DNA from: Escherichia coli
Lineage (GTDB): Bacteria; Pseudomonadota; Gammaproteobacteria; Enterobacterales; Enterobacteriaceae
Strand: one strand, 5' to 3'
DNA length: 64,000 bases
Assembly: GCF_003334785.1 (NCBI RefSeq)
Contig: NZ_QOWV01000001.1
Numbering within the stretch: the first letter of the stretch is position 1; every line of letters begins with the position of its first letter. Shown here in pieces: positions 2,761 to 44,153 of this stretch. Made by a program: the position numbers and the translations under genes. The notes beneath the pieces are model-generated. The model made no database searches and had not been told where the DNA came from. It saw only the letters and a program-made list of their open reading frames with translations.

Positions 2761-3711
2761 TTAATCGTCTTCTTCGTCATCCAGTTCAACGGGTGTCTGA
2801 TACTGGTCAGGTTTAATGACCAGCAGGTCGCAGCGAAGATGATCAATCACCTGTTCCGCCGTGTTGCCGAGGAATGCTGCTGAAATACCGGTGCGTCCTA
2901 CCGTGCCCAGAACCACAATCCCCGCCTGTAAGTGCTCCGCCAAATCAGGAATCACCTCTTCTGGCAGACCTTTTTCTACGTGCGTCATGTTTTCATTAAT
3001 GCCGAATTTCTGCCGCAGGGCTTTCATTGCCAGCAAATGTTGCCCACGAATGGCATCGTTATAAACGCTCGGGTCAAATTCCGGCAGTTCAATCGCGATA
3101 TTAATTGGCGTTACCGGATAAGCGCCAACCAGATGAACTTCGGTATGGTTGACTTGTTCTGCCAGTTCGATCGTCTCTTTGACCAGTTTTTCATTGAGCG
3201 CATTATGATACGGCTCTTCACTGGCGAGATTCACCGCCACCAGCGCCTTGCCTCCTTCCGGCCACGGCTGGTCTTTCACCATCCACACCGGGCTTGGGCA
3301 TTTGCGTAACAGATGCCAGTCCGTTGGCGTAAAAATCACCGCTTCCAGACGGTCATGTTGGTGCGCCATTTTTAGCACCAAATCGTGTCCGCCGCTGATC
3401 ACTTCCTGAATGATGGCTTCGAAAGGACGGTTATGCCAGACCACTTTAATTTCAATGGGAACGCCAGCATTGAGATAATATTTTGCCTGCTCGTGGATCC
3501 AGGCTGTACGCTGGCTGATGACGCCCTGACGCATAGCGGTACGTTCGTCCGGGGAGAGCAGGGTGGTCATTTCGTATGAGAAGTCATAGATCGGCAAAAA
3601 GGCTTTAATTTTGCCACCAATCCGTTGATGTAAATAAACAGCTCGCCGCAATGCTGGTTGGTCGTCCTGGTTAGGATCGATAACAACGAGCATGTTCTGA
3701 TACATAGCCAT
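2761..3711 (-). CDS. uspE: Universal stress protein E (tandem Usp domains)
   Basis: ORF 2761..3738; start placed at internal ATG 3709..3711 ([12 protein letters not shown]...) giving 316 aa, preceded by AAGGAGA Shine-Dalgarno. Confidence 0.9.
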
Positions 3712-6898: not shown

Positions 6899-8344
6899 TT
6901 ATTTTAAAGGTGACGGTGTCACGTTTTTCGGGATAGGGCAGTGATACGGTTGCGTGTCCGTTACTTGCTGATGCTCTTGTTGGCATTCTTGCAATAGCCC
7001 TGAATCAAGGAAGAGATTGACTGTGGTTGCTGCCATAGTTTTCGCCGCCAGCAGCATTCCTTTATGAGCAATAGATGTTCGCCCCTGGCTAACCAGTTGC
7101 CACGTATGTAGCGGTGTACCGACGGCAAAACAGGGGCTGAAACACTGGGCAACAGGCAGTTTCCAACTGACGTCGCCGACATCAGTCGATGCCGCAAGCA
7201 CGTTATCGGTGGCGGCATATGGAGCGACTTCATTCGCCAGTACCGTTTCACGATGACGTAGTGCAAAAACCTTGCCGTTTTCGCCACCGGTTGCGGCGAT
7301 ATTATTCAGACTGTTTTGCCGATCGTTGGAGGTGAGCGTAGCCTGAATTTGTTTCGCAAAAGCCAGTTCTTCGGAGTTCCATTCCGGGGTACCAAAATGG
7401 GATAGGGCCTGGTACATGGCATTTTCTAAGGTGCGATTCGGGAGATAACTGGAACAGGCTTTGTCGAAGCGGCATTCAACCGTGGTTTCGGTCATCAATG
7501 CCGCACCTTCGGCGATTTTGGCGACCCGATCATAAATATGCTGCACGTCGGTCATTTCGGGGGCGCGGATAAGATAAAGCACTTCTGCCTGCGCCTGGAC
7601 CACGTTGGGCGAGATCCCGCCGCTATTTGTGATGGCATAGTGTACGCGCGCTTTTTCAATAATATGTTCGTTGAGGAAGTTGGTGCCAGTGGTCATCAAC
7701 GTTACGGCATCAAGGGCGCTGCGTCCCAAATGAGGGGAATTCGCGGCATGTGCTGCGATCCCTTTAAAGCGCCATGATGCCTGAATGTTTGCCAGCGTGC
7801 GGGTATTGAACATACCGGCAAAGGCTTCCGGGTGCCAGGTGAGTGCCGCATCCACATCATCAAATACCCCCTCGCGAACCATGAACGTTTTACCCGAGCC
7901 GCCTTCTTCGCCAGGACAACCCTAAAAGCGCACCGTGCCGCCTTGCCCATATTGTTCCAGCCATTTCTTGACGGCTATTGCAGCGGCAAAGGCGGCGGTT
8001 CCCAGCAAATTGTGTCCGCAACCGTGACCATTTTCACCGGGCGTCACGGATGTAGGTTGCGCGCAACCTGCTTGCTGACTTAAACCTGCCAGGGCGTCAT
8101 ATTCTCCCAGCAGGGCGATAACCGGTTTGCCTTGACCAAACGAAGCAATAAAGGCATTTGGGATATTGCCTACGTTGCGGGTAACGGTGAAGCCTGCAGA
8201 TTCCAGCGCCGAAGCCAGATGCTCCGCTGACCAGAACTCTTCAAAACGTGTTTCTGGATGATCCCAGATTTGATCGGCAATATCGGTATAACGTTGGCGA
8301 TCGGCTTCAATCGCATCGTCGATAAAACGATAGATTTCCTGCAT
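6899..8344 (-). pseudogene. abgB: abgB (p-aminobenzoyl-glutamate hydrolase subunit B, M20 peptidase) interrupted by an in-frame TAG at 7922..7924
   Basis: ORFs 7922..8344 (140 aa, ends ...GGTVRF) and 6899..7882 (327 aa) are in the same frame; translating across the gap gives GTVRF-stop-GCPGEEGGSGKTF-MVREGV; total 140+1+13+327 = 481 codons, the length I recall for intact AbgB. Confidence 0.8.
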
Positions 8345-9829: not shown

Positions 9830-10738
9830 ATGGCTTTTCAGGTAAAAATTCATCAAATTCGGGCTTTTGTTGAAGTGGCTCGTCAGGGCAGCATTCGCGG
9901 AGCGAGCCGAATGTTGAATATGTCGCAACCGGCACTGAGTAAATCTATTCAGGAGCTAGAAGAAGGGTTAGCGGCGCAACTCTTTTTTCGCCGTAGTAAA
10001 GGCGTGACGTTAACTGATGCCGGTGAAAGTTTTTATCAGCACGCCAGTCTAATTCTTGAAGAGCTGCGCGCAGCCCAAGAGGATATTCGCCAACGACAAG
10101 GGCAACTGGCAGGGCAGATTAATATCGGCATGGGGGCCAGTATTTCCCGCAGTCTGATGCCAGCTGTCATATCTCGTTTTCATCAGCAGCATCCGCAGGT
10201 AAAAGTACGCATTATGGAAGGGCAACTGGTGTCGATGATTAATGAATTGCGTCAGGGAGAATTGGATTTCACCATCAATACCTATTATCAGGGACCGTAC
10301 GACCACGAATTTACTTTTGAGAAATTACTGGAAAAGCAATTCGCGATCTTTTGCCGCCCGGGACACCCCGCCATTGGTGCCCGTTCGATCAAACAGTTAC
10401 TGGATTACAGCTGGACAATGCCGACGCCACACGGCAGCTACTACAAACAGTTGAGTGAATTGCTTGACGATCAGGCGCAAACGCCACAGGTCGGTGTAGT
10501 CTGCGAGACGTTCTCAGCCTGTATCAGTCTGGTGGCAAAAAGCGATTTTCTCAGCATACTGCCTGAAGAAATGGGCTGCGATCCCTTGCACGGACAGGGG
10601 CTGGTGATGTTGCCGGTTAGCGAAATTTTACCGAAAGCGGCCTATTATTTGATTCAGCGGCGTGATAGTCGCCAGACACCACTGACCGCGTCATTAATCA
10701 CGCAATTCCGGCGAGAATGCGGCTATCTGCAAAGTTAA
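9830..10738 (+). CDS. abgR: LysR-type transcriptional regulator AbgR
   Basis: 302-aa ORF, N-terminal LysR HTH, divergent from abgABT. Confidence 0.9.
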   Translation: MAFQVKIHQIRAFVEVARQGSIRGASRMLNMSQPALSKSIQELEEGLAAQLFFRRSKGVTLTDAGESFYQHASLILEELRAAQEDIRQRQGQLAGQINIGMGASISRSLMPAVISRFHQQHPQVKVRIMEGQLVSMINELRQGELDFTINTYYQGPYDHEFTFEKLLEKQFAIFCRPGHPAIGARSIKQLLDYSWTMPTPHGSYYKQLSELLDDQAQTPQVGVVCETFSACISLVAKSDFLSILPEEMGCDPLHGQGLVMLPVSEILPKAAYYLIQRRDSRQTPLTASLITQFRRECGYLQS

Positions 10739-33625: not shown

Positions 33626-35671
33626 TTAATCGACAAAATCACCGTGCTGCCTGGCCACCAGCGTCAGAATTGAATACAGCGCCACCGGGGTTTGATGCTG
33701 ATTGAATACCTCTACAGCCCATTCCACCACACCTGTTGGTTTTTCTTCTGCGCTACGCTGTTTTTTCAGCGTCTTGCGCTTACAGGTGAGACGCACCTGG
33801 ATGGTATCGCCTGGCTTTACGGGTTCGATAAAACGCAAGCTTTCCAGCCCGTAGTTAGCAATGACCGGACCGACACCGGCATCGACAAACAGACCCGCAG
33901 CCGCAGAAAGCACAAAATACCCATGCACCACCCGCTCACCGAAAATAGATTCGGCAGCAGCAATCCTATCCATATGTGCATAGAAATGATCGCCGCTGAG
34001 GCAAGCAAAGTTAACAATATCGGCCTCTGTCATTGTGCGGCGGGGAGTCAACAGGCTGTCGCCTGGTTGTAGCTCCTCAAAATATTTGCGGAACGGATGA
34101 ATACGATCTTCTTCGACTTTCGCACCGCGCACCCACTGTTTACTGATAGCGGCAAGCATCGTCGGACTACCCTGAACAGCGGTTCGCTGCATGTAATGTT
34201 TCACCGCTCGTAAACCGCCTAATTCTTCACCGCCTCCTGCGCGACCAGGCCCACCATGTACCAGTTGTGGCAGTGGGGAGCCATGCCCGGTGGATTCTTT
34301 TGCCGACTCTTCATTGAGGATCTGAATTCGCCCATGCGTACGTGCCGCGTCGGCAATAAACTGACGCGCAATTTGCGGATCAGCCGTCACCAGCGTTCCC
34401 GCAAGGCTACCGCCGCCTGCACAAGCCAGTTGCAGAGCATGTCGCTGGTTTTGTGCTGGCATCAGCGTTGCGACAGGGCCAAAGGCTTCTGTTGCATGTA
34501 CCGCCGGTGTTTCATCCGGCTGCGGACAGTACAATAAGGTTGGCGGGAAGAAGGCACCCGCAGCAGATAAATCCGCCTGACCACCGAGGCGAATCTCGCA
34601 TCCTGCAGCCAGCAATATGTTCACTTTTTCCTGCACATCGGCACGCTGCTCAGCATTTACCAGTGCGCCCATTTTCACGCCTTCCTGAGCAGGATCACCG
34701 ACCACGACTTTCTGTAATCGCGCAACCAGAGCATCACTGACAGCATTAACCAATGCCTGCGGCACAATAATCCGCCGGATTGCCGTACATTTTTGCCCGG
34801 CTTTTGTGGTCATCTCACGCACAACTTCACGAATAAACAGCGCAAACTCCGGTTGATCCGGGGTGACATCTTCGCCCAGTACGCAGCAGTTCAGGGAATC
34901 AGCTTCCATAGTGAAGGGGATAGATTTGGCGACGATATTTGGCTGAACTCGCAGCATCTGTCCGGTCGCCGCTGACCCCGTGAAAGTCACCACATCCTGG
35001 CTGTCCAGATGATCCAACAAGTCGCCAGCACTACCGCAGATCAGACTAATTGCGCCTTCGGGAACAAGACCACTATCGACAATTGATTTCACCATCGCCT
35101 GAGTCAGTTGGGCCGTCGCGGTAGCTGGTTTGATGATGGCTGGCATTCCGCCCAGCCACGTTGGTGCCAGCTTTTCCAGCATTCCCCAGCAGGGGAAGTT
35201 AAAGGCGTTAATATGCACTGCCACGCCTGACTTTGAGGTCAGTAAATGGCGCGCGGCAAATCCACCTTCTTTCGATAAGGGGATCAATTCATCTTCCGGC
35301 CACAGCGTATCGTCAGGCAGCTCCCGGCTACCGAGGCTGGCGTAAGTAAATAACGTCCCAATGCCACCTTCAATATCAACCCAACTGTCTGCCCGCGTTG
35401 CGCCTGTTTGCGCAGAAAGAGCATAGAAACGCTCTTTTTCACTCAGCAGATGTTTAGCGACCGCTTTAAGCATCGCCGCACGTTCGATAAAGGTCATAGC
35501 GCGAAGGGCGGGGGCACCTTTTTCAATGGCAAACTGGCGGGCAGCCGCCATATCAAGACCTTCACTGGTCACTTCCCATAACGCCTCGCCGCTAATAGCG
35601 TGGTGAATCAAACGGCTACGGCCCCGGCCAGACTGCCAGGTACCGGATAAGAAACTGGCTAACTGCTGCAT
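33626..35671 (-). CDS. paaZ: Bifunctional PaaZ (oxepin-CoA hydrolase / 3-oxo-5,6-dehydrosuberyl-CoA semialdehyde dehydrogenase)
   Basis: 681-aa ORF; N-terminal ALDH domain and C-terminal MaoC-like hotdog domain. Confidence 0.9.
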
Positions 35672-35713
35672 CGCTACTCTCCAGATGTTTCACATTTCTG
35701 TTGCTAATAGTTA

Positions 35714-35728
35714 AATCGCGAATCATAA
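35714..35728 (-). promoter_or_regulatory. PaaX-operator-like half-site in the paaZ promoter
   Basis: Minus strand reads TTTATGATTCGCGAT, matching the WWTRTGATTCGYGWT motif I recall for PaaX. Confidence 0.4.
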
Positions 35729-35899
35729 AAAGCAAGGGATCTTTTAACGAAATGTTAACTATGCGATCTGTATAGCAACTGCGGAAAACATTAATGCACT
35801 GATAAATAATGATTTATAAAAATAGGGTGCGAAATCCGTCACAGTTCAAACATACAAAATTTGTGATTTTACTTAACTATTGTGTAACTTTCATAAAAC

Positions 35900-35941
35900 A
35901 ATGTGATTCGTGTTTTTAATTAATTCACGAAAACTGGAATC
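35900..35941 (+). promoter_or_regulatory. PaaX-operator-like site in the paaA promoter (TGATTC-N27-GAATC)
   Basis: AATGTGATTCGTGTT at 35900..35914 matches the recalled PaaX motif; inverted GAATC 27 bp downstream; lies just upstream of the paaA start. Confidence 0.45.
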
Positions 35942-35955
35942 GTAAAGGTGATGAC

Positions 35956-36885
35956 GTGACCCAAGAAGAACGCTTTGAGCAACGGATAGCCCAGGAAACG
36001 GCTATCGAGCCACAGGACTGGATGCCCGATGCTTACCGAAAGACATTGATCCGCCAGATTGGGCAGCATGCGCACTCCGAGATTGTTGGTATGTTGCCTG
36101 AAGGTAACTGGATCACTCGCGCACCAACCTTGCGGCGTAAAGCCATTCTGTTGGCCAAAGTGCAGGATGAAGCCGGTCATGGTCTGTATCTCTATAGCGC
36201 CGCCGAAACACTGGGCTGCGCCAGAGAAGACATCTACCAAAAAATGCTCGACGGACGGATGAAATATTCCTCCATCTTTAATTATCCGACATTGAGTTGG
36301 GCTGATATCGGTGTTATCGGCTGGCTGGTGGATGGCGCAGCGATCGTCAATCAGGTGGCGTTATGCCGCACTTCTTATGGCCCGTATGCCAGAGCAATGG
36401 TGAAAATCTGCAAAGAAGAGAGTTTTCACCAGCGTCAGGGGTTTGAAGCCTGCATGGCACTGGCGCAGGGCAGCGAAGCTCAAAAGCAGATGTTGCAAGA
36501 CGCCATTAACCGTTTCTGGTGGCCAGCCTTAATGATGTTCGGGCCAAACGATGATAACTCGCCAAACAGCGCCAGAAGTCTCACCTGGAAAATCAAACGT
36601 TTCACCAACGACGAACTCCGCCAGCGTTTCGTGGATAACACCGTTCCACAGGTTGAAATGCTCGGTATGACCGTTCCTGACCCGGATCTGCATTTTGACA
36701 CTGAAAGCGGTCACTACCGCTTTGGTGAGATCGACTGGCAGGAGTTTAACGAAGTAATTAACGGTCGCGGAATTTGTAATCAGGAGAGGCTCGACGCCAA
36801 ACGTAAAGCCTGGGAAGAAGGTACCTGGGTACGGGAAGCAGCGCTGGCCCATGCACAAAAACAACATGCCCGTAAGGTCGCATAA
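35956..36885 (+). CDS. paaA: Phenylacetyl-CoA 1,2-epoxidase subunit A
   Basis: 309-aa ORF with GTG start ([10 protein letters not shown]...); first gene of paaABCDE. Confidence 0.9.
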
Positions 36886-36896
36886 GGAGATTCAAA

Positions 36897-37184
36897 ATGA
36901 GTAATGTTTACTGGCCGTTATACGAAGTTTTCGTGCGTGGCAAACAGGGCTTATCACACCGCCATGTTGGCAGTTTACATGCTGCCGATGAGCGGATGGC
37001 ACTGGAAAATGCCCGTGATGCTTACACCCGTCGTAGCGAAGGATGTTCAATTTGGGTGGTGAAGGCGAGTGAAATTGTTGCCTCGCAACCGGAAGAACGC
37101 GGTGAATTTTTTGATCCGGCTGAAAGCAAGGTCTATCGCCATCCAACGTTTTACACCATCCCTGATGGCATTGAGCACATGTGA
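36897..37184 (+). CDS. paaB: Phenylacetyl-CoA epoxidase subunit B
   Basis: 95-aa ORF, operon position. Confidence 0.9.
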   Translation: MSNVYWPLYEVFVRGKQGLSHRHVGSLHAADERMALENARDAYTRRSEGCSIWVVKASEIVASQPEERGEFFDPAESKVYRHPTFYTIPDGIEHM

Positions 37185-37192
37185 GGTCGGAA

Positions 37193-37939
37193 ATGAATCA
37201 GTTAACGGCTTACACCTTGCGCCTGGGCGATAACTGCCTGGTGCTCTCCCAGCGGTTGGGTGAATGGTGCGGTCACGCACCGGAACTGGAAATCGATCTC
37301 GCACTGGCAAACATTGGCCTCGATTTATTAGGTCAGGCACGCAACTTCTTATCGTATGCCGCTGAATTAGCGGGAGAAGGCGATGAAGATACCCTGGCCT
37401 TCACCCGAGACGAGCGCCAGTTCAGCAACTTATTGTTGGTTGAACAACCAAACGGCAATTTTGCCGACACCATTGCACGCCAGTATTTCATCGATGCATG
37501 GCATGTGGCGCTCTTTACCCGTCTGATGGAAAGCCGTGATCCGCAACTGGCGGCGATTTCTGCCAAAGCAATTAAAGAAGCGCGCTATCACCTGCGTTTT
37601 AGTCGTGGCTGGCTGGAGCGACTGGGCAATGGTACTGACGTATCAGGGCAAAAGATGCAGCAGGCCATCAACAAGTTGTGGCGTTTTACCGCCGAACTGT
37701 TCGATGCCGACGAGATTGATATTGCACTGAGTGAAGAGGGTATTGCGGTTGATCCACGCACTTTACGCGCAGCGTGGGAAGCCGAAGTTTTTGCCGGGAT
37801 CAACGAAGCCACATTGAACGTACCGCAAGAGCAGGCGTATCGCACTGGCGGTAAAAAAGGACTGCATACCGAACACCTTGGACCCATGCTGGCAGAAATG
37901 CAGTATCTCCAGCGTGTCTTGCCCGGTCAGCAATGGTAA
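37193..37939 (+). CDS. paaC: Phenylacetyl-CoA epoxidase subunit C
   Basis: ORF 37181..37939; start at MNQLTAYTLRLG (248 aa) after GAGG. Confidence 0.9.
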   Translation: MNQLTAYTLRLGDNCLVLSQRLGEWCGHAPELEIDLALANIGLDLLGQARNFLSYAAELAGEGDEDTLAFTRDERQFSNLLLVEQPNGNFADTIARQYFIDAWHVALFTRLMESRDPQLAAISAKAIKEARYHLRFSRGWLERLGNGTDVSGQKMQQAINKLWRFTAELFDADEIDIALSEEGIAVDPRTLRAAWEAEVFAGINEATLNVPQEQAYRTGGKKGLHTEHLGPMLAEMQYLQRVLPGQQW

Positions 37940-37953
37940 CAGAGGAGATGGGT

Positions 37954-38451
37954 ATGCAACGTCTGGCCACCATTGCACCGCCACAGGTTCATGAGATATG
38001 GGCGCTACTCAGCCAGATCCCGGACCCGGAGATCCCGGTGCTGACCATTACTGATTTAGGCATGGTGCGTAATGTGACACAGATGGGAGAAGGATGGGTG
38101 ATCGGCTTTACGCCGACATATTCCGGTTGTCCGGCAACGGAACATTTGATTGGCGCGATACGTGAGGCAATGACAACCAACGGGTTTACCCCCGTTCAGG
38201 TTGTGCTGCAACTCGACCCGGCATGGACCACCGACTGGATGACCCCCGATGCCCGTGAGCGTCTGCGAGAGTATGGCATTAGCCCGCCCGCCGGACACAG
38301 TTGCCATGCCCATTTGCCGCCAGAAGTACGTTGCCCGCGCTGCGCCAGCGTCCATACCACACTTATCAGTGAATTTGGTTCCACGGCCTGCAAAGCATTG
38401 TACCGCTGCGATAGTTGCCGCGAACCTTTCGATTATTTCAAATGTATTTGA
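37954..38451 (+). CDS. paaD: Phenylacetyl-CoA epoxidase assembly protein PaaD
   Basis: ORF 37933..38451; start at MQRLATIAPP (165 aa) after GAGGAG. Confidence 0.9.
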   Translation: MQRLATIAPPQVHEIWALLSQIPDPEIPVLTITDLGMVRNVTQMGEGWVIGFTPTYSGCPATEHLIGAIREAMTTNGFTPVQVVLQLDPAWTTDWMTPDARERLREYGISPPAGHSCHAHLPPEVRCPRCASVHTTLISEFGSTACKALYRCDSCREPFDYFKCI

Positions 38452-38458
38452 GGATGCC

Positions 38459-39529
38459 ATGACAACGTTTCATTCCTTAACAGTGGCAAAAGTCGAGTCG
38501 GAAACCCGTGATGCGGTGACCATTACCTTTGCGGTGCCCCAGCCTTTGCAGGAGGCGTATCGCTTTCGCCCCGGTCAACATTTGACCTTAAAAGCCAGCT
38601 TTGATGGTGAAGAATTACGCCGTTGTTACTCCATTTGCCGCAGCTATCTGCCTGGCGAAATTAGTGTGGCGGTGAAAGCCATTGAAGGCGGACGTTTCTC
38701 CCGCTATGCCCGCGAACACATCCGCCAGGGTATGACGCTGGAGGTCATGGTGCCGCAGGGGCATTTCGGCTATCAGCCGCAGGCCGAACGCCAGGGGCGC
38801 TATCTGGCAATTGCAGCAGGATCAGGTATTACGCCAATGCTGGCGATTATCGCCACCACTTTACAAACCGAGCCTGAAAGTCAGTTCACCCTGATCTACG
38901 GTAACCGTACCAGCCAGAGCATGATGTTTCGCCAGGCACTGGCAGACCTGAAAGACAAATATCCTCAGCGTTTACAGTTGTTGTGCATTTTCAGTCAGGA
39001 AACCCTCGACAGCGATCTGCTTCACGGGCGTATTGACGGTGAAAAATTACAGTCACTTGGGGCCTCGCTCATTAATTTTCGTCTTTATGATGAGGCATTT
39101 ATTTGTGGTCCGGCGGCGATGATGGATGACGCGGAAACCGCCTTAAAAGCACTGGGAATGCCAGATAAAACCATTCATCTGGAGCGGTTTAATACGCCTG
39201 GCACGCGCGTCAAACGTAGCGTTAACGTGCAAAGTGACGGACAAAAAGTGACTGTACGTCAGGATGGGCGGGATCGGGAAATCGTGCTTAATGCCGACGA
39301 TGAAAGCATTCTCGATGCGGCATTGCGCCAGGGGGCGGATCTGCCCTATGCCTGCAAAGGCGGCGTCTGTGCGACCTGCAAATGCAAAGTGCTGCGTGGC
39401 AAAGTGGCGATGGAAACCAATTACAGTCTGGAACCGGATGAACTGGCCGCAGGTTATGTGTTGAGTTGCCAGGCACTGCCGCTGACCAGCGATGTGGTGG
39501 TTGACTTTGACGCGAAGGGGATGGCATGA
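38459..39529 (+). CDS. paaE: Phenylacetyl-CoA epoxidase reductase subunit PaaE (FNR-like domain plus 2Fe-2S ferredoxin)
   Basis: ORF 38249..39529; start at MTTFHSLTVAK (356 aa); C-terminal CxxxxCxxC...C ferredoxin motif (CKGGVCATCKC). Confidence 0.9.
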   Translation: MTTFHSLTVAKVESETRDAVTITFAVPQPLQEAYRFRPGQHLTLKASFDGEELRRCYSICRSYLPGEISVAVKAIEGGRFSRYAREHIRQGMTLEVMVPQGHFGYQPQAERQGRYLAIAAGSGITPMLAIIATTLQTEPESQFTLIYGNRTSQSMMFRQALADLKDKYPQRLQLLCIFSQETLDSDLLHGRIDGEKLQSLGASLINFRLYDEAFICGPAAMMDDAETALKALGMPDKTIHLERFNTPGTRVKRSVNVQSDGQKVTVRQDGRDREIVLNADDESILDAALRQGADLPYACKGGVCATCKCKVLRGKVAMETNYSLEPDELAAGYVLSCQALPLTSDVVVDFDAKGMA

Positions 39530-40293
39530 GCGAACTGATCGTCAGCCGTCAGCAACGAGTATTGTTGCTGACCCTTAACCGTCCCGCCGCACGTAATGCG
39601 CTAAATAATGCCCTGCTGATGCAACTGGTAAATGAACTGGAAGCTGCGGCTACCGATACCAGCATTTCGGTCTGTGTGATTACCGGTAATGCACGCTTTT
39701 TTGCCGCTGGGGCCGATCTCAACGAAATGGCAGAAAAAGATCTCGCGGCCACCTTAAACGATACACGTCCGCAGCTATGGGCGCGATTGCAGGCCTTTAA
39801 TAAACCACTTATCGCAGCCGTCAATGGTTACGCGCTTGGGGCGGGTTGCGAACTGGCATTGTTGTGCGATGTGGTGGTTGCCGGAGAGAACGCGCGTTTT
39901 GGGTTGCCGGAAATCACTCTCGGCATCATGCCTGGCGCAGGCGGAACGCAACGTTTAATCCGTAGTGTCGGTAAATCGTTAGCCAGCAAAATGGTGCTGA
40001 GCGGAGAAAGTATCACCGCTCAGCAAGCACAGCAGGCCGGGCTGGTTAGCGACGTCTTCCCCAGCGATTTAACCCTCGAATACGCCTTACAGCTGGCATC
40101 GAAAATGGCACGTCACTCGCCGCTGGCCTTACAAGCGGCAAAGCAAGCGCTGCGCCAGTCGCAGGAAGTGGCTTTGCAAGCCGGACTTGCCCAGGAGCGA
40201 CAGTTATTCACCTTGCTGGCGGCAACAGAAGATCGTCATGAAGGCATCTCCGCTTTCTTACAAAAACGCACGCCCGACTTTAAAGGACGCTAA
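39526..40293 (+). CDS. paaF: 2,3-Dehydroadipyl-CoA hydratase (enoyl-CoA hydratase family)
   Basis: 255-aa ORF, crotonase fold; start overlaps paaE stop. Confidence 0.9.
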   Translation: MSELIVSRQQRVLLLTLNRPAARNALNNALLMQLVNELEAAATDTSISVCVITGNARFFAAGADLNEMAEKDLAATLNDTRPQLWARLQAFNKPLIAAVNGYALGAGCELALLCDVVVAGENARFGLPEITLGIMPGAGGTQRLIRSVGKSLASKMVLSGESITAQQAQQAGLVSDVFPSDLTLEYALQLASKMARHSPLALQAAKQALRQSQEVALQAGLAQERQLFTLLAATEDRHEGISAFLQKRTPDFKGR

Positions 40294-41081
40294 TGATGGA
40301 ATTCATCCTCAGTCATGTAGAAAAGGGCGTGATGACACTAACGCTCAACCGCCCGGAACGCCTGAACAGTTTTAATGATGAGATGCACGCACAACTGGCA
40401 GAGTGCCTGAAACAGGTCGAGCGCGACGACACTATCCGTTGCCTGTTACTTACAGGTGCCGGGCGCGGATTTTGTGCTGGTCAGGATCTTAACGATCGTA
40501 ACGTTGATCCCACAGGCCCCGCACCGGATTTAGGGATGTCAGTTGAACGTTTCTATAACCCACTGGTACGTCGCCTGGCAAAACTGCCAAAACCGGTGAT
40601 CTGTGCAGTCAATGGCGTGGCGGCAGGGGCAGGCGCAACACTGGCACTGGGGGGCGACATCGTTATTGCTGCCCGTTCAGCAAAATTCGTCATGGCGTTT
40701 AGTAAGTTAGGCTTAATACCCGATTGCGGTGGAACCTGGTTACTGCCACGCGTTGCCGGACGAGCGCGCGCCATGGGGCTGGCACTGCTGGGGAATCAAC
40801 TGAGTGCTGAACAGGCGCACGAATGGGGGATGATCTGGCAGGTTGTTGATGATGAAACGCTGGCAGATACCGCGCAACAGCTGGCACGGCATCTGGCGAC
40901 ACAACCGACATTTGGTCTTGGACTTATCAAGCAAGCGATAAATAGCGCTGAAACCAATACGCTCGATACGCAACTGGATCTGGAACGTGACTATCAGCGA
41001 CTTGCCGGACGGAGCGCAGATTATCGTGAAGGTGTCAGTGCGTTCCTGGCTAAACGCTCACCGCAGTTCACGGGGAAATAG
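40293..41081 (+). CDS. paaG: 1,2-Epoxyphenylacetyl-CoA isomerase (crotonase family)
   Basis: 262-aa ORF; start overlaps paaF stop (TAATG). Confidence 0.9.
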   Translation: MMEFILSHVEKGVMTLTLNRPERLNSFNDEMHAQLAECLKQVERDDTIRCLLLTGAGRGFCAGQDLNDRNVDPTGPAPDLGMSVERFYNPLVRRLAKLPKPVICAVNGVAAGAGATLALGGDIVIAARSAKFVMAFSKLGLIPDCGGTWLLPRVAGRARAMGLALLGNQLSAEQAHEWGMIWQVVDDETLADTAQQLARHLATQPTFGLGLIKQAINSAETNTLDTQLDLERDYQRLAGRSADYREGVSAFLAKRSPQFTGK

Positions 41082-41082
41082 C

Positions 41083-42510
41083 ATGATGATAAATGTGCAA
41101 ACTGTGGCAGTGATTGGGAGCGGCACCATGGGGGCAGGCATTGCTGAAGTTGCTGCCAGTCATGGACACCAGGTTTTACTGTATGACATTTCTGCTGAAG
41201 CGCTGACCCGCGCAATCGACGGGATACACGCGCGGCTAAATTCACGCGTGACGCGGGGAAAACTGACTGCTGAAACCTGTGAACGCACATTGAAACGCCT
41301 GATCCCGGTGACCGATATTCACGCGCTGGCAGCTGCGGACCTGGTCATTGAAGCGGCGTCTGAACGTCTGGAAGTCAAAAAAGCGCTCTTTGCACAGCTG
41401 GCGGAAGTTTGCCCGCCACAAACGCTATTGACCACTAACACTTCGTCAATCTCTATAACCGCGATTGCTGCGGAGATAAAAAATCCTGAACGTGTTGCGG
41501 GGCTGCATTTTTTTAACCCGGCACCGGTGATGAAGTTGGTGGAGGTGGTCAGTGGGCTGGCAACGGCGGCGGAAGTTGTTGAGCAGTTGTGTGAACTAAC
41601 GTTGAGTTGGGGTAAGCAGCCTGTGCGCTGTCATTCGACTCCTGGATTTATCGTTAACCGTGTTGCGCGTCCTTATTATTCCGAGGCCTGGCGGGCACTG
41701 GAAGAGCAGGTTGCTGCACCAGAAGTGATTGACGCTGCACTTCGCGATGGCGCTGGTTTCCCGATGGGGCCGCTGGAATTAACCGATCTGATTGGTCAGG
41801 ACGTCAATTTTGCTGTCACCTGTTCGGTGTTTAACGCTTTCTGGCAGGAGCGTCGTTTTTTACCTTCGCTGGTGCAACAGGAACTGGTGATTGGTGGACG
41901 GTTGGGCAAGAAAAGTGGGCTGGGCGTGTACGACTGGCGCGCGGAACGTGAGGCAGTTGTTGGCCTGGAAGCGGTAAGCGACAGTTTTAGCCCAATGAAA
42001 GTAGAAAAGAAAAGTGACGGTGTCACGGAAATTGACGATGTTTTATTGATTGAGACACAAGGCGAGACGGCACAGGCGCTGGCAATACGACTGGCACGCC
42101 CGGTGGTAGTGATCGATAAAATGGCGGGCAAGGTGGTGACCATTGCTGCTGCAGCGGTGAACCCGGACTCAGCGACCCGCAAGGCCATTTATTACCTGCA
42201 ACAGCAGGGCAAAACAGTGCTGCAAATTGCAGATTACCCAGGAATGCTGATTTGGCGAACGGTAGCAATGATCATCAATGAAGCCCTTGATGCGCTTCAA
42301 AAAGGCGTGGCCTCTGAACAGGATATCGATACCGCCATGCGTCTTGGGGTGAATTATCCATATGGCCCACTTGCCTGGGGAGCGCAACTTGGCTGGCAGC
42401 GAATATTAAGGCTCCTTGAAAATCTACAGCATCACTATGGCGAAGAACGCTATCGCCCATGTTCATTGCTGCGCCAACGGGCGCTTCTGGAGAGCGGTTA
42501 TGAGTCATAA
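41083..42510 (+). CDS. paaH: 3-Hydroxyadipyl-CoA dehydrogenase
   Basis: ORF 40987..42510; start at MMINVQTVAVIGSGTMGAGIA (Rossmann GxGxxG), 475 aa. Confidence 0.9.
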   Translation: MMINVQTVAVIGSGTMGAGIAEVAASHGHQVLLYDISAEALTRAIDGIHARLNSRVTRGKLTAETCERTLKRLIPVTDIHALAAADLVIEAASERLEVKKALFAQLAEVCPPQTLLTTNTSSISITAIAAEIKNPERVAGLHFFNPAPVMKLVEVVSGLATAAEVVEQLCELTLSWGKQPVRCHSTPGFIVNRVARPYYSEAWRALEEQVAAPEVIDAALRDGAGFPMGPLELTDLIGQDVNFAVTCSVFNAFWQERRFLPSLVQQELVIGGRLGKKSGLGVYDWRAEREAVVGLEAVSDSFSPMKVEKKSDGVTEIDDVLLIETQGETAQALAIRLARPVVVIDKMAGKVVTIAAAAVNPDSATRKAIYYLQQQGKTVLQIADYPGMLIWRTVAMIINEALDALQKGVASEQDIDTAMRLGVNYPYGPLAWGAQLGWQRILRLLENLQHHYGEERYRPCSLLRQRALLESGYES

Positions 42511-42922
42511 GGCCTGGCAAAATGCCCATGCAATGTATGAGAACGATGCCTGCGCCAAAGCGCTTGGCATCGACATTATCTCAATGGATGAAGGCTTTGC
42601 TGTAGTGACCATGACCGTCACTGCACAAATGCTTAACGGTCATCAAAGTTGCCACGGCGGGCAGCTATTTTCACTGGCTGATACTGCCTTTGCCTACGCC
42701 TGCAATAGCCAGGGGCTGGCAGCCGTCGCTTCTGCCTGCACGATTGATTTTTTGCGTCCAGGCTTTGCCGGAGACACCTTAACTGCTACTGCGCAGGTAC
42801 GTCATCAGGGCAAGCAAACCGGTGTTTACGACATCGAAATTGTTAACCAACAACAAAAAACGGTTGCGCTGTTTCGCGGTAAATCTCACCGCATCGGCGG
42901 CACCATTACAGGAGAAGCCTGA
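42500..42922 (+). CDS. paaI: Hotdog-fold thioesterase PaaI
   Basis: ORF 42416..42922; start at MSHKAWQNAH (140 aa), overlapping paaH end. Confidence 0.85.
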   Translation: MSHKAWQNAHAMYENDACAKALGIDIISMDEGFAVVTMTVTAQMLNGHQSCHGGQLFSLADTAFAYACNSQGLAAVASACTIDFLRPGFAGDTLTATAQVRHQGKQTGVYDIEIVNQQQKTVALFRGKSHRIGGTITGEA

Positions 42923-44127
42923 TGCGTGAAGCCTTTATTTGTGACGGAATTCGTACGCCAATTGGTCGCTACGGCGGGGCATTATCAAGTGTTCGGGCTG
43001 ATGATCTGGCTGCTATCCCTTTGCGGGAACTGCTGGTGCGAAACCCGCGTCTCGATGCGGAGTGTATCGATGATGTGATCCTCGGCTGTGCTAATCAGGC
43101 GGGAGAAGATAACCGTAACGTAGCCCGGATGGCGACTTTACTGGCGGGGCTGCCGCAGAGTGTTTCCGGCACAACCATTAACCGCTTGTGTGGTTCCGGG
43201 CTGGACGCACTGGGGTTTGCCGCACGGGCGATTAAAGCGGGCGATGGCGATTTGCTGATCGCCGGTGGCGTGGAGTCAATGTCACGGGCACCGTTTGTTA
43301 TGGGCAAGGCAGCCAGTGCATTTTCTCGTCAGGCTGAGATGTTCGATACCACTATTGGCTGGCGATTTGTGAACCCGCTCATGGCTCAGCAATTTGGAAC
43401 TGACAGCATGCCGGAAACGGCAGAGAATGTAGCTGAACTGTTAAAAATCTCACGAGAAGATCAAGATAGTTTTGCGCTACGCAGTCAGCAACGTACGGCA
43501 AAAGCGCAATCCTCAGGCATTCTGGCTGAGGAGATTGTTCCGGTTGTGTTGAAAAACAAGAAAGGTGTTGTAACAGAAATACAACATGATGAGCATCTGC
43601 GCCCGGAAACGACGCTGGAACAGTTACGTGGGTTAAAAGCACCATTTCGTGCCAATGGGGTGATTACCGCAGGCAATGCTTCCGGGGTGAATGACGGAGC
43701 CGCTGCGTTGATTATTGCCAGTGAACAGATGGCAGCAGCGCAAGGACTGACACCGCGGGCGCGTATCGTAGCCATGGCAACCGCCGGGGTGGAACCGCGC
43801 CTGATGGGGCTTGGTCCGGTGCCTGCAACTCGCCGGGTGCTGGAACGCGCAGGGCTGAGTATTCACGATATGGACGTGATTGAACTGAACGAAGCGTTCG
43901 CGGCCCAGGCGTTGGGTGTACTACGCGAATTGGGGCTGCCTGATGATGCCCCACATGTTAACCCCAACGGAGGCGCTATCGCCTTAGGCCATCCGTTGGG
44001 AATGAGTGGTGCCCGCCTGGCACTGGCTGCCAGCCATGAGCTGCATCGGCGTAACGGTCGTTACGCATTGTGCACCATGTGCATCGGTGTCGGTCAGGGC
44101 ATCGCCATGATTCTGGAGCGTGTTTGA
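42922..44127 (+). CDS. paaJ: 3-Oxoadipyl-CoA / 3-oxo-5,6-dehydrosuberyl-CoA thiolase
   Basis: 401-aa ORF, thiolase active-site Cys region ([10 protein letters not shown]). Confidence 0.9.
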
Positions 44128-44153
44128 GCATATCAACCTGCGAGTACCCTACA

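Follow-up and report, generated by a model that had tools for sequence, protein, structure and literature searches.

The divergently oriented genes paaZ and paaA of Escherichia coli are separated by a 284-bp spacer (35672..35955 of the window, which is the whole 64-kb stretch of DNA analysed). This arrangement raises the question of which sequences in the spacer are recognised by the repressor PaaX, and whether paaX itself is preceded by an element of the same kind. PaaX represses the divergent promoters Pz and Pa as well as its own promoter Px and is released by phenylacetyl-CoA, and its E. coli site has been given as TGATTC(N27)GAATCA, citing Kim 2004 (PMC9493321). The autoregulation of paaXY is also cited in PMC4640556 and PMC11825099.

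The paa locus and the 15-nucleotide motif

The window represents an E. coli chromosome with the paa cluster, and its gene order is that of strain K-12 MG1655. The 801 bases around the paaZ/paaA spacer matched numerous E. coli chromosomes at 100% identity, and the flanking genes are annotated there as paaZ and paaA. The gene paaZ (33626..35671) is located on the minus strand, and paaA to paaK (35956..45467) are on the plus strand, followed by the repressor gene paaX (45568..46518, plus strand; annotated as paaX in K-12) and by paaY (46500..47090). The paaX product scored 410.9 bits against the TIGR02277 PaaX equivalog (cut-off 264.55) and matched PDB 8a39 over its full length (residues 1-316, E = 1e-206). 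The cognate repressor is encoded in the same genome (ORF 45568..46518). The paa region is present in approximately 58% of the complete E. coli genomes (3132-3166 out of 5426), three of the matches being plasmid-borne. At 47421..53189, a single ORF of 1922 amino acids occupies the place of the interrupted ydbA pseudogene of K-12; judged by its reading frame, ydbA seems to be intact in the window strain, unlike in K-12. Since an Rfam scan of the paaZ-paaA spacer gave no match, an RNA element does not enter as a rival explanation.

The earlier note, made from the sequence alone, had pointed to two 15-mers fitting the 15-bp PaaX consensus, WWTRTGATTCGYGWT. At Pa, AATGTGATTCGTGTT was found on the plus strand at 35900..35914, exact and with the coordinates as claimed, and it contains the promoter-proximal half-site TGATTC (35904..35909). 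At Pz, TTTATGATTCGCGAT on the minus strand is also an exact match, containing the strong half-site TGATTC (35725..35720; GAATCA on the plus strand), and here only the coordinates had to be moved by one base, from 35714..35728 to 35715..35729. No other exact match to WWTRTGATTCGYGWT was present on either strand of the 64-kb window, and each of 100 shuffles contained 0. Both 15-mers lie inside the 284-bp spacer, approximately 42-58 nt upstream of their own gene, as mirror images of each other. Relaxed searches of the window remained at chance level: 28 matches with up to three mismatches were found versus 34.5 expected, and the core TGATTCG was not enriched (8 found versus 11.65 expected). The best additional relaxed match, ATGGTGATTCGCTTT at 45647..45661 inside paaX, was dropped as an operator, as its conservation did not exceed that imposed by codon constraints.

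The consensus WWTRTGATTCGYGWT was presumably derived from these same E. coli promoters and from the pac promoter. Because the consensus was probably built on these sites, the fit of the two 15-mers is circular, and a perfect match at Pa and Pz is to be expected by construction. Independent support comes from the conservation, between species, of the hexamers within the 15-mers and of their partners. In the paaA promoter, exactly 27 nt separate TGATTC (35904..35909) from an inverted GAATC downstream (35937..35941), as the earlier note had stated. The complete second half-site on the plus strand reads GAATCG (35937..35942), which corresponds to GAATCA in five of six positions and ends 13 nt before the GTG start codon of paaA. 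On the paaZ side, a degenerate second half-site may be located on the minus strand at 35686..35691 (TGTTTC on the plus strand, five of six positions), separated by 28 nt from the strong half-site and by 14 nt from the ATG of paaZ; it is regarded as a candidate second arm. Scored as hexamer pairs, Pa (TGATTC-N27-GAATCG) and Pz (TGTTTC-N28-GAATCA) each reached 11/12, and Px (TGATTC-N26-GAAGCG) 10/12. All three sites are positioned within 60 nt upstream of the start codons of paaZ, paaA, and paaX.

Within the window alone, such pairs have little discriminating power. The Pa copy is the only match to TGATTC-N24..30-GAATC in the window, yet 20 out of 100 shuffles contained at least one, which makes this weak evidence by itself. 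Likewise, the two-hexamer model is not specific in the E. coli window alone, where the score of Px (10/12) was reached by 25 sites. Pairs scoring 11/12 at 6969, 24124, and 59354 are all situated within long ORFs and were rejected as chance matches.

Conservation of the hexamer pairs

When 100,044 species genomes were scanned with PaaA, 80 loci were obtained and retrieved with 10-kb flanks. The divergent orientation of paaZ and paaA is kept in 59 of them, namely 43 loci of Enterobacterales (including Enterobacter, Klebsiella, Citrobacter, Kluyvera, Serratia, Providencia, and Xenorhabdus) and 16 of Moraxellaceae. Each locus was scored for TGATTC-N24..30-GAATCA; in addition, 27 paaZ-paaA spacers and 22 paaX upstream regions of Enterobacteriaceae were aligned.

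Most of the 284-bp spacer has diverged among the 27 Enterobacteriaceae, and only a small number of blocks show no or hardly any variation. On the paaZ side, conservation is highest in GAATCATAAAA (35720..35730). On the paaA side, TGATTC (35904..35909) is invariant in the 27 Enterobacteriaceae and also in all 43 Enterobacterales loci, and GAATC[A/G]T (35937..35943) forms a further conserved block, as do the two arms of a CRP-like sequence, TGCGA-N6-TCACA (35828..35843), and some promoter-like boxes. The 27 nt between the Pa hexamers (35910..35936, plus strand) are A+T-rich, and their sequence is not conserved in the alignment; over the 43 loci, the A+T content of this part averages 78%, compared to 69% for the whole intergenic region.

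The Pa pair was perfect (12/12) in 40 of the 43 Enterobacterales loci and scored 11/12 in the remaining three, with a spacing of always 26-28 nt. Its second arm is GAATCA in the 40 loci and GAATCG in E. coli, Citrobacter sp. R56, and Rosenbergiella. For comparison, the background in the same loci amounted to one perfect pair per 9686 windows of 110 nt, and 21 paaA loci of Bacteroidota without a nearby paaX, serving as control, scored 10/12 at most. All 43 Enterobacterales loci thus reach at least 11/12 at Pa, above any of the Bacteroidota loci that lack a nearby paaX. At Pz, the spacing was N28 in 25 of the 30 loci scoring at least 10/12, N27 in four, and N25 in one, and the second arm is invariant only at its T, G, and C positions (TGnTnC). 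Position counts over 153 half-sites showed that only TGATTC reaches approximately 2 bits and that T-R is weakly preferred on its 5' side. The 3' tail of the 15-mer (GYGWT) carries almost no information across species and varies between E. coli strains, too. As the information resides in TGATTC and hardly any in the tail of the 15-mer, the unit under selection is the widely spaced hexamer pair. On the level of sequence conservation, the determinant is the inverted hexamer pair and not the 15-mer, in agreement with the published PaaX model TGATTC(N27)GAATCA (PMC9493321). Measured against this model, all three operators of E. coli are imperfect, while those of its relatives are mostly perfect at Pa and Px.

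Variation within E. coli was assessed with ten alleles comprising the window, K-12, and eight strains spanning the identity range. The 284-bp spacer contains 40 variable columns among them, 0 of which fall into the 24 half-site positions (hypergeometric P = 0.022). Compared to K-12 MG1655, the paaZ-paaA spacer of the window differs in one of 284 positions and the half-sites are untouched. Position 35902 is T in the window and in K-12, but C in most other alleles sampled, which results in AACGTGATTC with one mismatch to the 15-mer; this C breaks the 15-bp motif (AACGTGATTCGTGTT) and leaves the hexamer intact. The GCG beside the Pz hexamer is replaced by GTG or ATA in other E. coli alleles. From these alleles, the 15-mer looks as if it had been fitted to laboratory-strain sequences.

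Several further features were noticed in the aligned loci. Three loci from Cedecea and Enterobacter sp. Ag1 (L022, L023, L026) have perfect Pa operators and the Pz half-site, and no paaX follows paaK in the fetched flank. Cedecea is listed as lacking a local regulator in a 2026 survey (PMC13186573); the repressor of this group may be encoded elsewhere or beyond the fetched flank. In the paaA promoter of Acinetobacter and Psychrobacter (L041, L044-L059), TGATAC-N26..28-GTATC replaces TGATTC...GAATCA and a TTGAC/TTGAT box is found inside the spacer, the PaaX of Acinetobacter and Psychrobacter being about 39% identical. Serratia, Xenorhabdus, and an unclassified Enterobacteriaceae MAG (L034) carry GTATCA at Pz and TGATTC/GAATCA at Pa. 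These variants suggest that position 5 of the half-site can be T or A. A third, inner GAATC(A) is present in the Pa spacer of five loci (L015, L017, L021, L025, L026; approximately 9930-9985 in each locus), for example, in TGATTCacaaaaacgcattgtgtGAATCAaatggGAATCA, and the Pa spacer of E. coli contains only a weaker inner dyad, TTCGTG...CACGAA (35907..35930). Conserved blocks are also seen on the paaZ side at 35744..35768 (TTTAAT..TTAAC..TG[T/C]GATC) and on the paaA side at 35873..35877 (TTAAC). Each of the two E. coli genes is preceded by one copy of the 9-mer TTAACTATT, oriented alike with respect to its gene (35714..35706, minus strand; 35873..35881, plus strand).

The paaX promoter and competing readings

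Upstream of paaX, the earlier note had described an inverted repeat, TGATT-N4-AATCA. The corresponding sequence, TGATTcataAATCA at 45529..45542, is the only one of its kind in the window, and 7 out of 100 shuffles contained one. Its TGATTC half was identified correctly, whereas AATCA turned out to be the wrong partner, as it is seen only in E. coli and one Pseudocitrobacter. The region between paaK and paaX could not be aligned among 22 Enterobacteriaceae except for two blocks, TGCTATGATTCA and, 26 nt further on, GAATCA before the ATG. The block TGCTATGATTCA (45524..45535) is near-invariant in the 22 upstream regions and the sequence further upstream is not conserved. It harbours the half-site TGATTC (45529..45534, plus strand), which overlaps a conserved extended −10-like element, TGcTATGAT (45524..45532), of a putative promoter. 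In the window strain, the second half-site would be the degenerate GAAGCG (45561..45566, plus strand; four of six positions), which begins 26 nt past the first and is separated from the paaX ATG by 1 nt. The pair TGATTC-N26-GAATCA is perfect (12/12) in 17 of 19 Enterobacteriaceae. As far as conservation indicates, the partner arm at Px is this hexamer 26 bp downstream, abutting the ATG. The AATCA arm of the short palindrome (45538..45542, plus strand), which only E. coli and Pseudocitrobacter (L012) have at that place, is probably outside the conserved operator. The 15-mer is not recognisable here; the Px site GCTATGATTCATAAA has five mismatches to WWTRTGATTCGYGWT, counted by eye.

A different reading of Px is that PaaX, or another dimeric protein, binds to a compact operator formed by the short palindrome TGATTcataAATCA (45529..45542). 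This palindrome does exist and has no second copy in the window (0.07 copies expected), and since the distal partner is degenerate in the window strain (GAAGCG), the nearer one could make up for it. Short dyads of this type (TGATT-N3/4-AATCA) are also seen beside the Pz half-site of certain other genera, but Pa is devoid of any such dyad. The invariance of the palindrome in 10/10 E. coli alleles could be added in its favour; however, the complete stretch 45500..45563 is invariant, which renders this observation uninformative. Outside E. coli, only Pseudocitrobacter possesses the palindrome at this place, whereas the pair with the 26-nt spacing is carried by the 17 of 19 Enterobacteriaceae mentioned above. 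We therefore consider a compact operator at Px improbable and prefer the widely spaced pair there as well.

The second Px arm varies within E. coli. Position 45564 is G in the window and in K-12 (GAAGCG) and T in 5/10 alleles (GAATCG), the latter being nearer to the GAATCA of the other genera. The 76-nt Px stretch of 1656 complete E. coli genomes was identical to that of the window, and 1509 differed by approximately one base. The five sampled alleles suggest that this one-base difference is always the polymorphism at 45564, and about half of the paa-carrying E. coli probably have T there. Tentatively, the E. coli operators can be viewed as imperfect and the T-to-G exchange at 45564 as derived, in which case the autorepression of PaaX would differ between lineages if the second arm aids binding. 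If so, the basal repressor level and the induction threshold would depend on the lineage, a natural tuning of an otherwise textbook circuit. Between the paaK stop codon and Px, a G+C-rich hairpin without a T run (CTGGCCCTGG...CCAGGGCCAG, 45476..45507) was observed, and other genera have unrelated G+C-rich palindromes at this position; the structure following paaK seems to be kept while the sequence is not.

Alternatively, the 15-mers, in which TGTGA or ATGA is found, might be half-sites of CRP or belong to a different global regulator. Activation of Pa and Pz by CRP has been reported (PMC9493321, PMC4640556), TGTGA is part of the Pa 15-mer, and the Px block TGTGCTATGATTCATA fits TGTGA-N6-TCACA with two mismatches. 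However, no TCACA partner follows 6 nt past the TGTGA of Pa, so that the dyad expected for CRP is not formed. Moreover, the base preceding TGATTC varies (A or G), whereas TGATTC and its inverted partner at a distance of 26-28 bp are invariant. A much better CRP-like site that is also conserved, TGCGAAATCCGTCACA (35828..35843, no strand assigned), is found elsewhere in the spacer. It has one mismatch to TGTGA-N6-TCACA and is distinct from the PaaX sites, which ruled out the TGTGA of the Pa 15-mer as a CRP half-site. Altogether, an assignment of the 15-mers to CRP or another global regulator is very unlikely. For IHF, one site with one mismatch to the consensus was detected (35792..35804, minus strand), which is located in the non-conserved centre of the spacer. 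Chance similarity in an A+T-rich intergenic region, with which the missing enrichment of the TGATTCG core and of the relaxed matches would agree, can be dismissed almost completely in view of two exact 15-mers versus 0 expected in one 284-bp spacer, placed symmetrically before each gene, and of hexamer pairs with fixed spacing that are conserved in 43 loci of many genera amid diverged sequence.

The preferred interpretation, which we hold with high confidence, is that the sites are operators of the phenylacetyl-CoA-responsive PaaX and consist of inverted TGATTC hexamers separated by an A+T-rich, otherwise free spacer of 26-28 bp.

Promoter geometry, proposed mechanism, and related systems

A scan with the sigma-70 consensus found none of the Pa, Pz, and Px promoters, and for this reason the promoter elements were inferred from conservation, together with weak hexamers. 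On the minus strand, Pz would have TTGCTT (35735..35730) as −35 box and the conserved AACTAT (35712..35707) as −10 box. The strong Pz hexamer (35725..35720) is situated in the 17-nt spacer between these two sequences. On the plus strand, the conserved −10-like box of Pa is TAACTT (35885..35890), which lies within TGTAACTTT (35883..35891), and both Pa hexamers are located downstream of TGTAACTTT. A transcription start near 35897 would place the CRP-like site at about −61.5. The centres of the half-sites are 32-34 bp apart. As this distance equals about three helical turns, both half-sites of an operator should face the same side of the DNA, and the A+T-rich spacers would be compatible with DNA bending.

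The sequences, their positions and conservation, and the identity of PaaX were determined here; binding, repression, the inducer, and the competition with RNA polymerase are taken from the literature. Binding of PaaX in vitro and its release by phenylacetyl-CoA have been reported for Pa, Pz, and Px, and PaaX and RNA polymerase compete for Px and Pz, while a different mechanism applies at Pa (PMC9493321). According to the model proposed here, PaaX would occupy the operators of Pa, Pz, and Px in the absence of phenylacetate. At Pz, PaaX bound to the strong half-site between the putative −35 and −10 boxes would exclude RNA polymerase, and the same would be achieved at Px by occupation of the half-site overlapping the putative extended −10 element. 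Because both half-sites of Pa are downstream of its −10-like box, repression of this promoter would have to take effect once polymerase has bound. The phenylacetyl-CoA that PaaK produces would then release PaaX, after which CRP could activate through the conserved site at 35828..35843. The deduced geometry matches the published competition at Pz and Px and its absence at Pa, which is to be taken as a consistency check and not as a demonstration.

The operators of Pa, Pz, and Px described for E. coli W and K-12 (Ferrandez 2000, Kim 2004, Fernandez 2014, via PMC9493321) belong to the same organism and the same genes and have the same positions; the TGATTC-N27-GAATC(A) architecture is shared with the window, and nothing of substance is different. 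In K-12 as in the window strain, the second Px arm is weakened by G at 45564. The sites are not mere relatives of the E. coli PaaX operators of Pa, Pz, and Px but these very operators, and they are already known. That PaaX represses both catabolic promoters and its own gene, as the earlier note proposed, is published (PMC9493321), and the hexamers to which it pointed are the invariant blocks of the alignments. Its interpretation is supported apart from the geometry of Px. Beyond annotation, the significance of this result is slight: reading raw sequence without tools recovered real, published PaaX operators. The refinements concern the hexamer pair as the conserved element, the identification of the Px partner arm, the view of the E. 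coli operators as degenerate members of their family, and a common polymorphism in the Px arm. They may help to improve the model of PaaX sites with which the regulon is predicted.

A similar box, bound by a repressor of the same family, has been reported for the promoter of the penicillin G acylase gene pac in E. coli W and for the PstyA and paa promoters of Pseudomonas sp. Y2. The PaaX sites at these promoters are said to go back to work by Galan and by Kim in 2004 and by del Peso-Santos in 2006. The pac and sty sites serve target genes other than the paa operators considered here, and the comparison is second-hand; neither pac nor sty genes were detected in the 64-kb window. A further paa repressor that is likewise released by phenylacetyl-CoA is the TetR-type PaaR of Burkholderia cenocepacia, Thermus thermophilus, and Corynebacterium, a protein family unrelated to PaaX. 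The operators of PaaR are compact palindromes (ACCGACCGGTCGGTT; CNAACGNNCGTTNG) located between the −35 and −10 boxes, in contrast to the widely spaced hexamers of PaaX.
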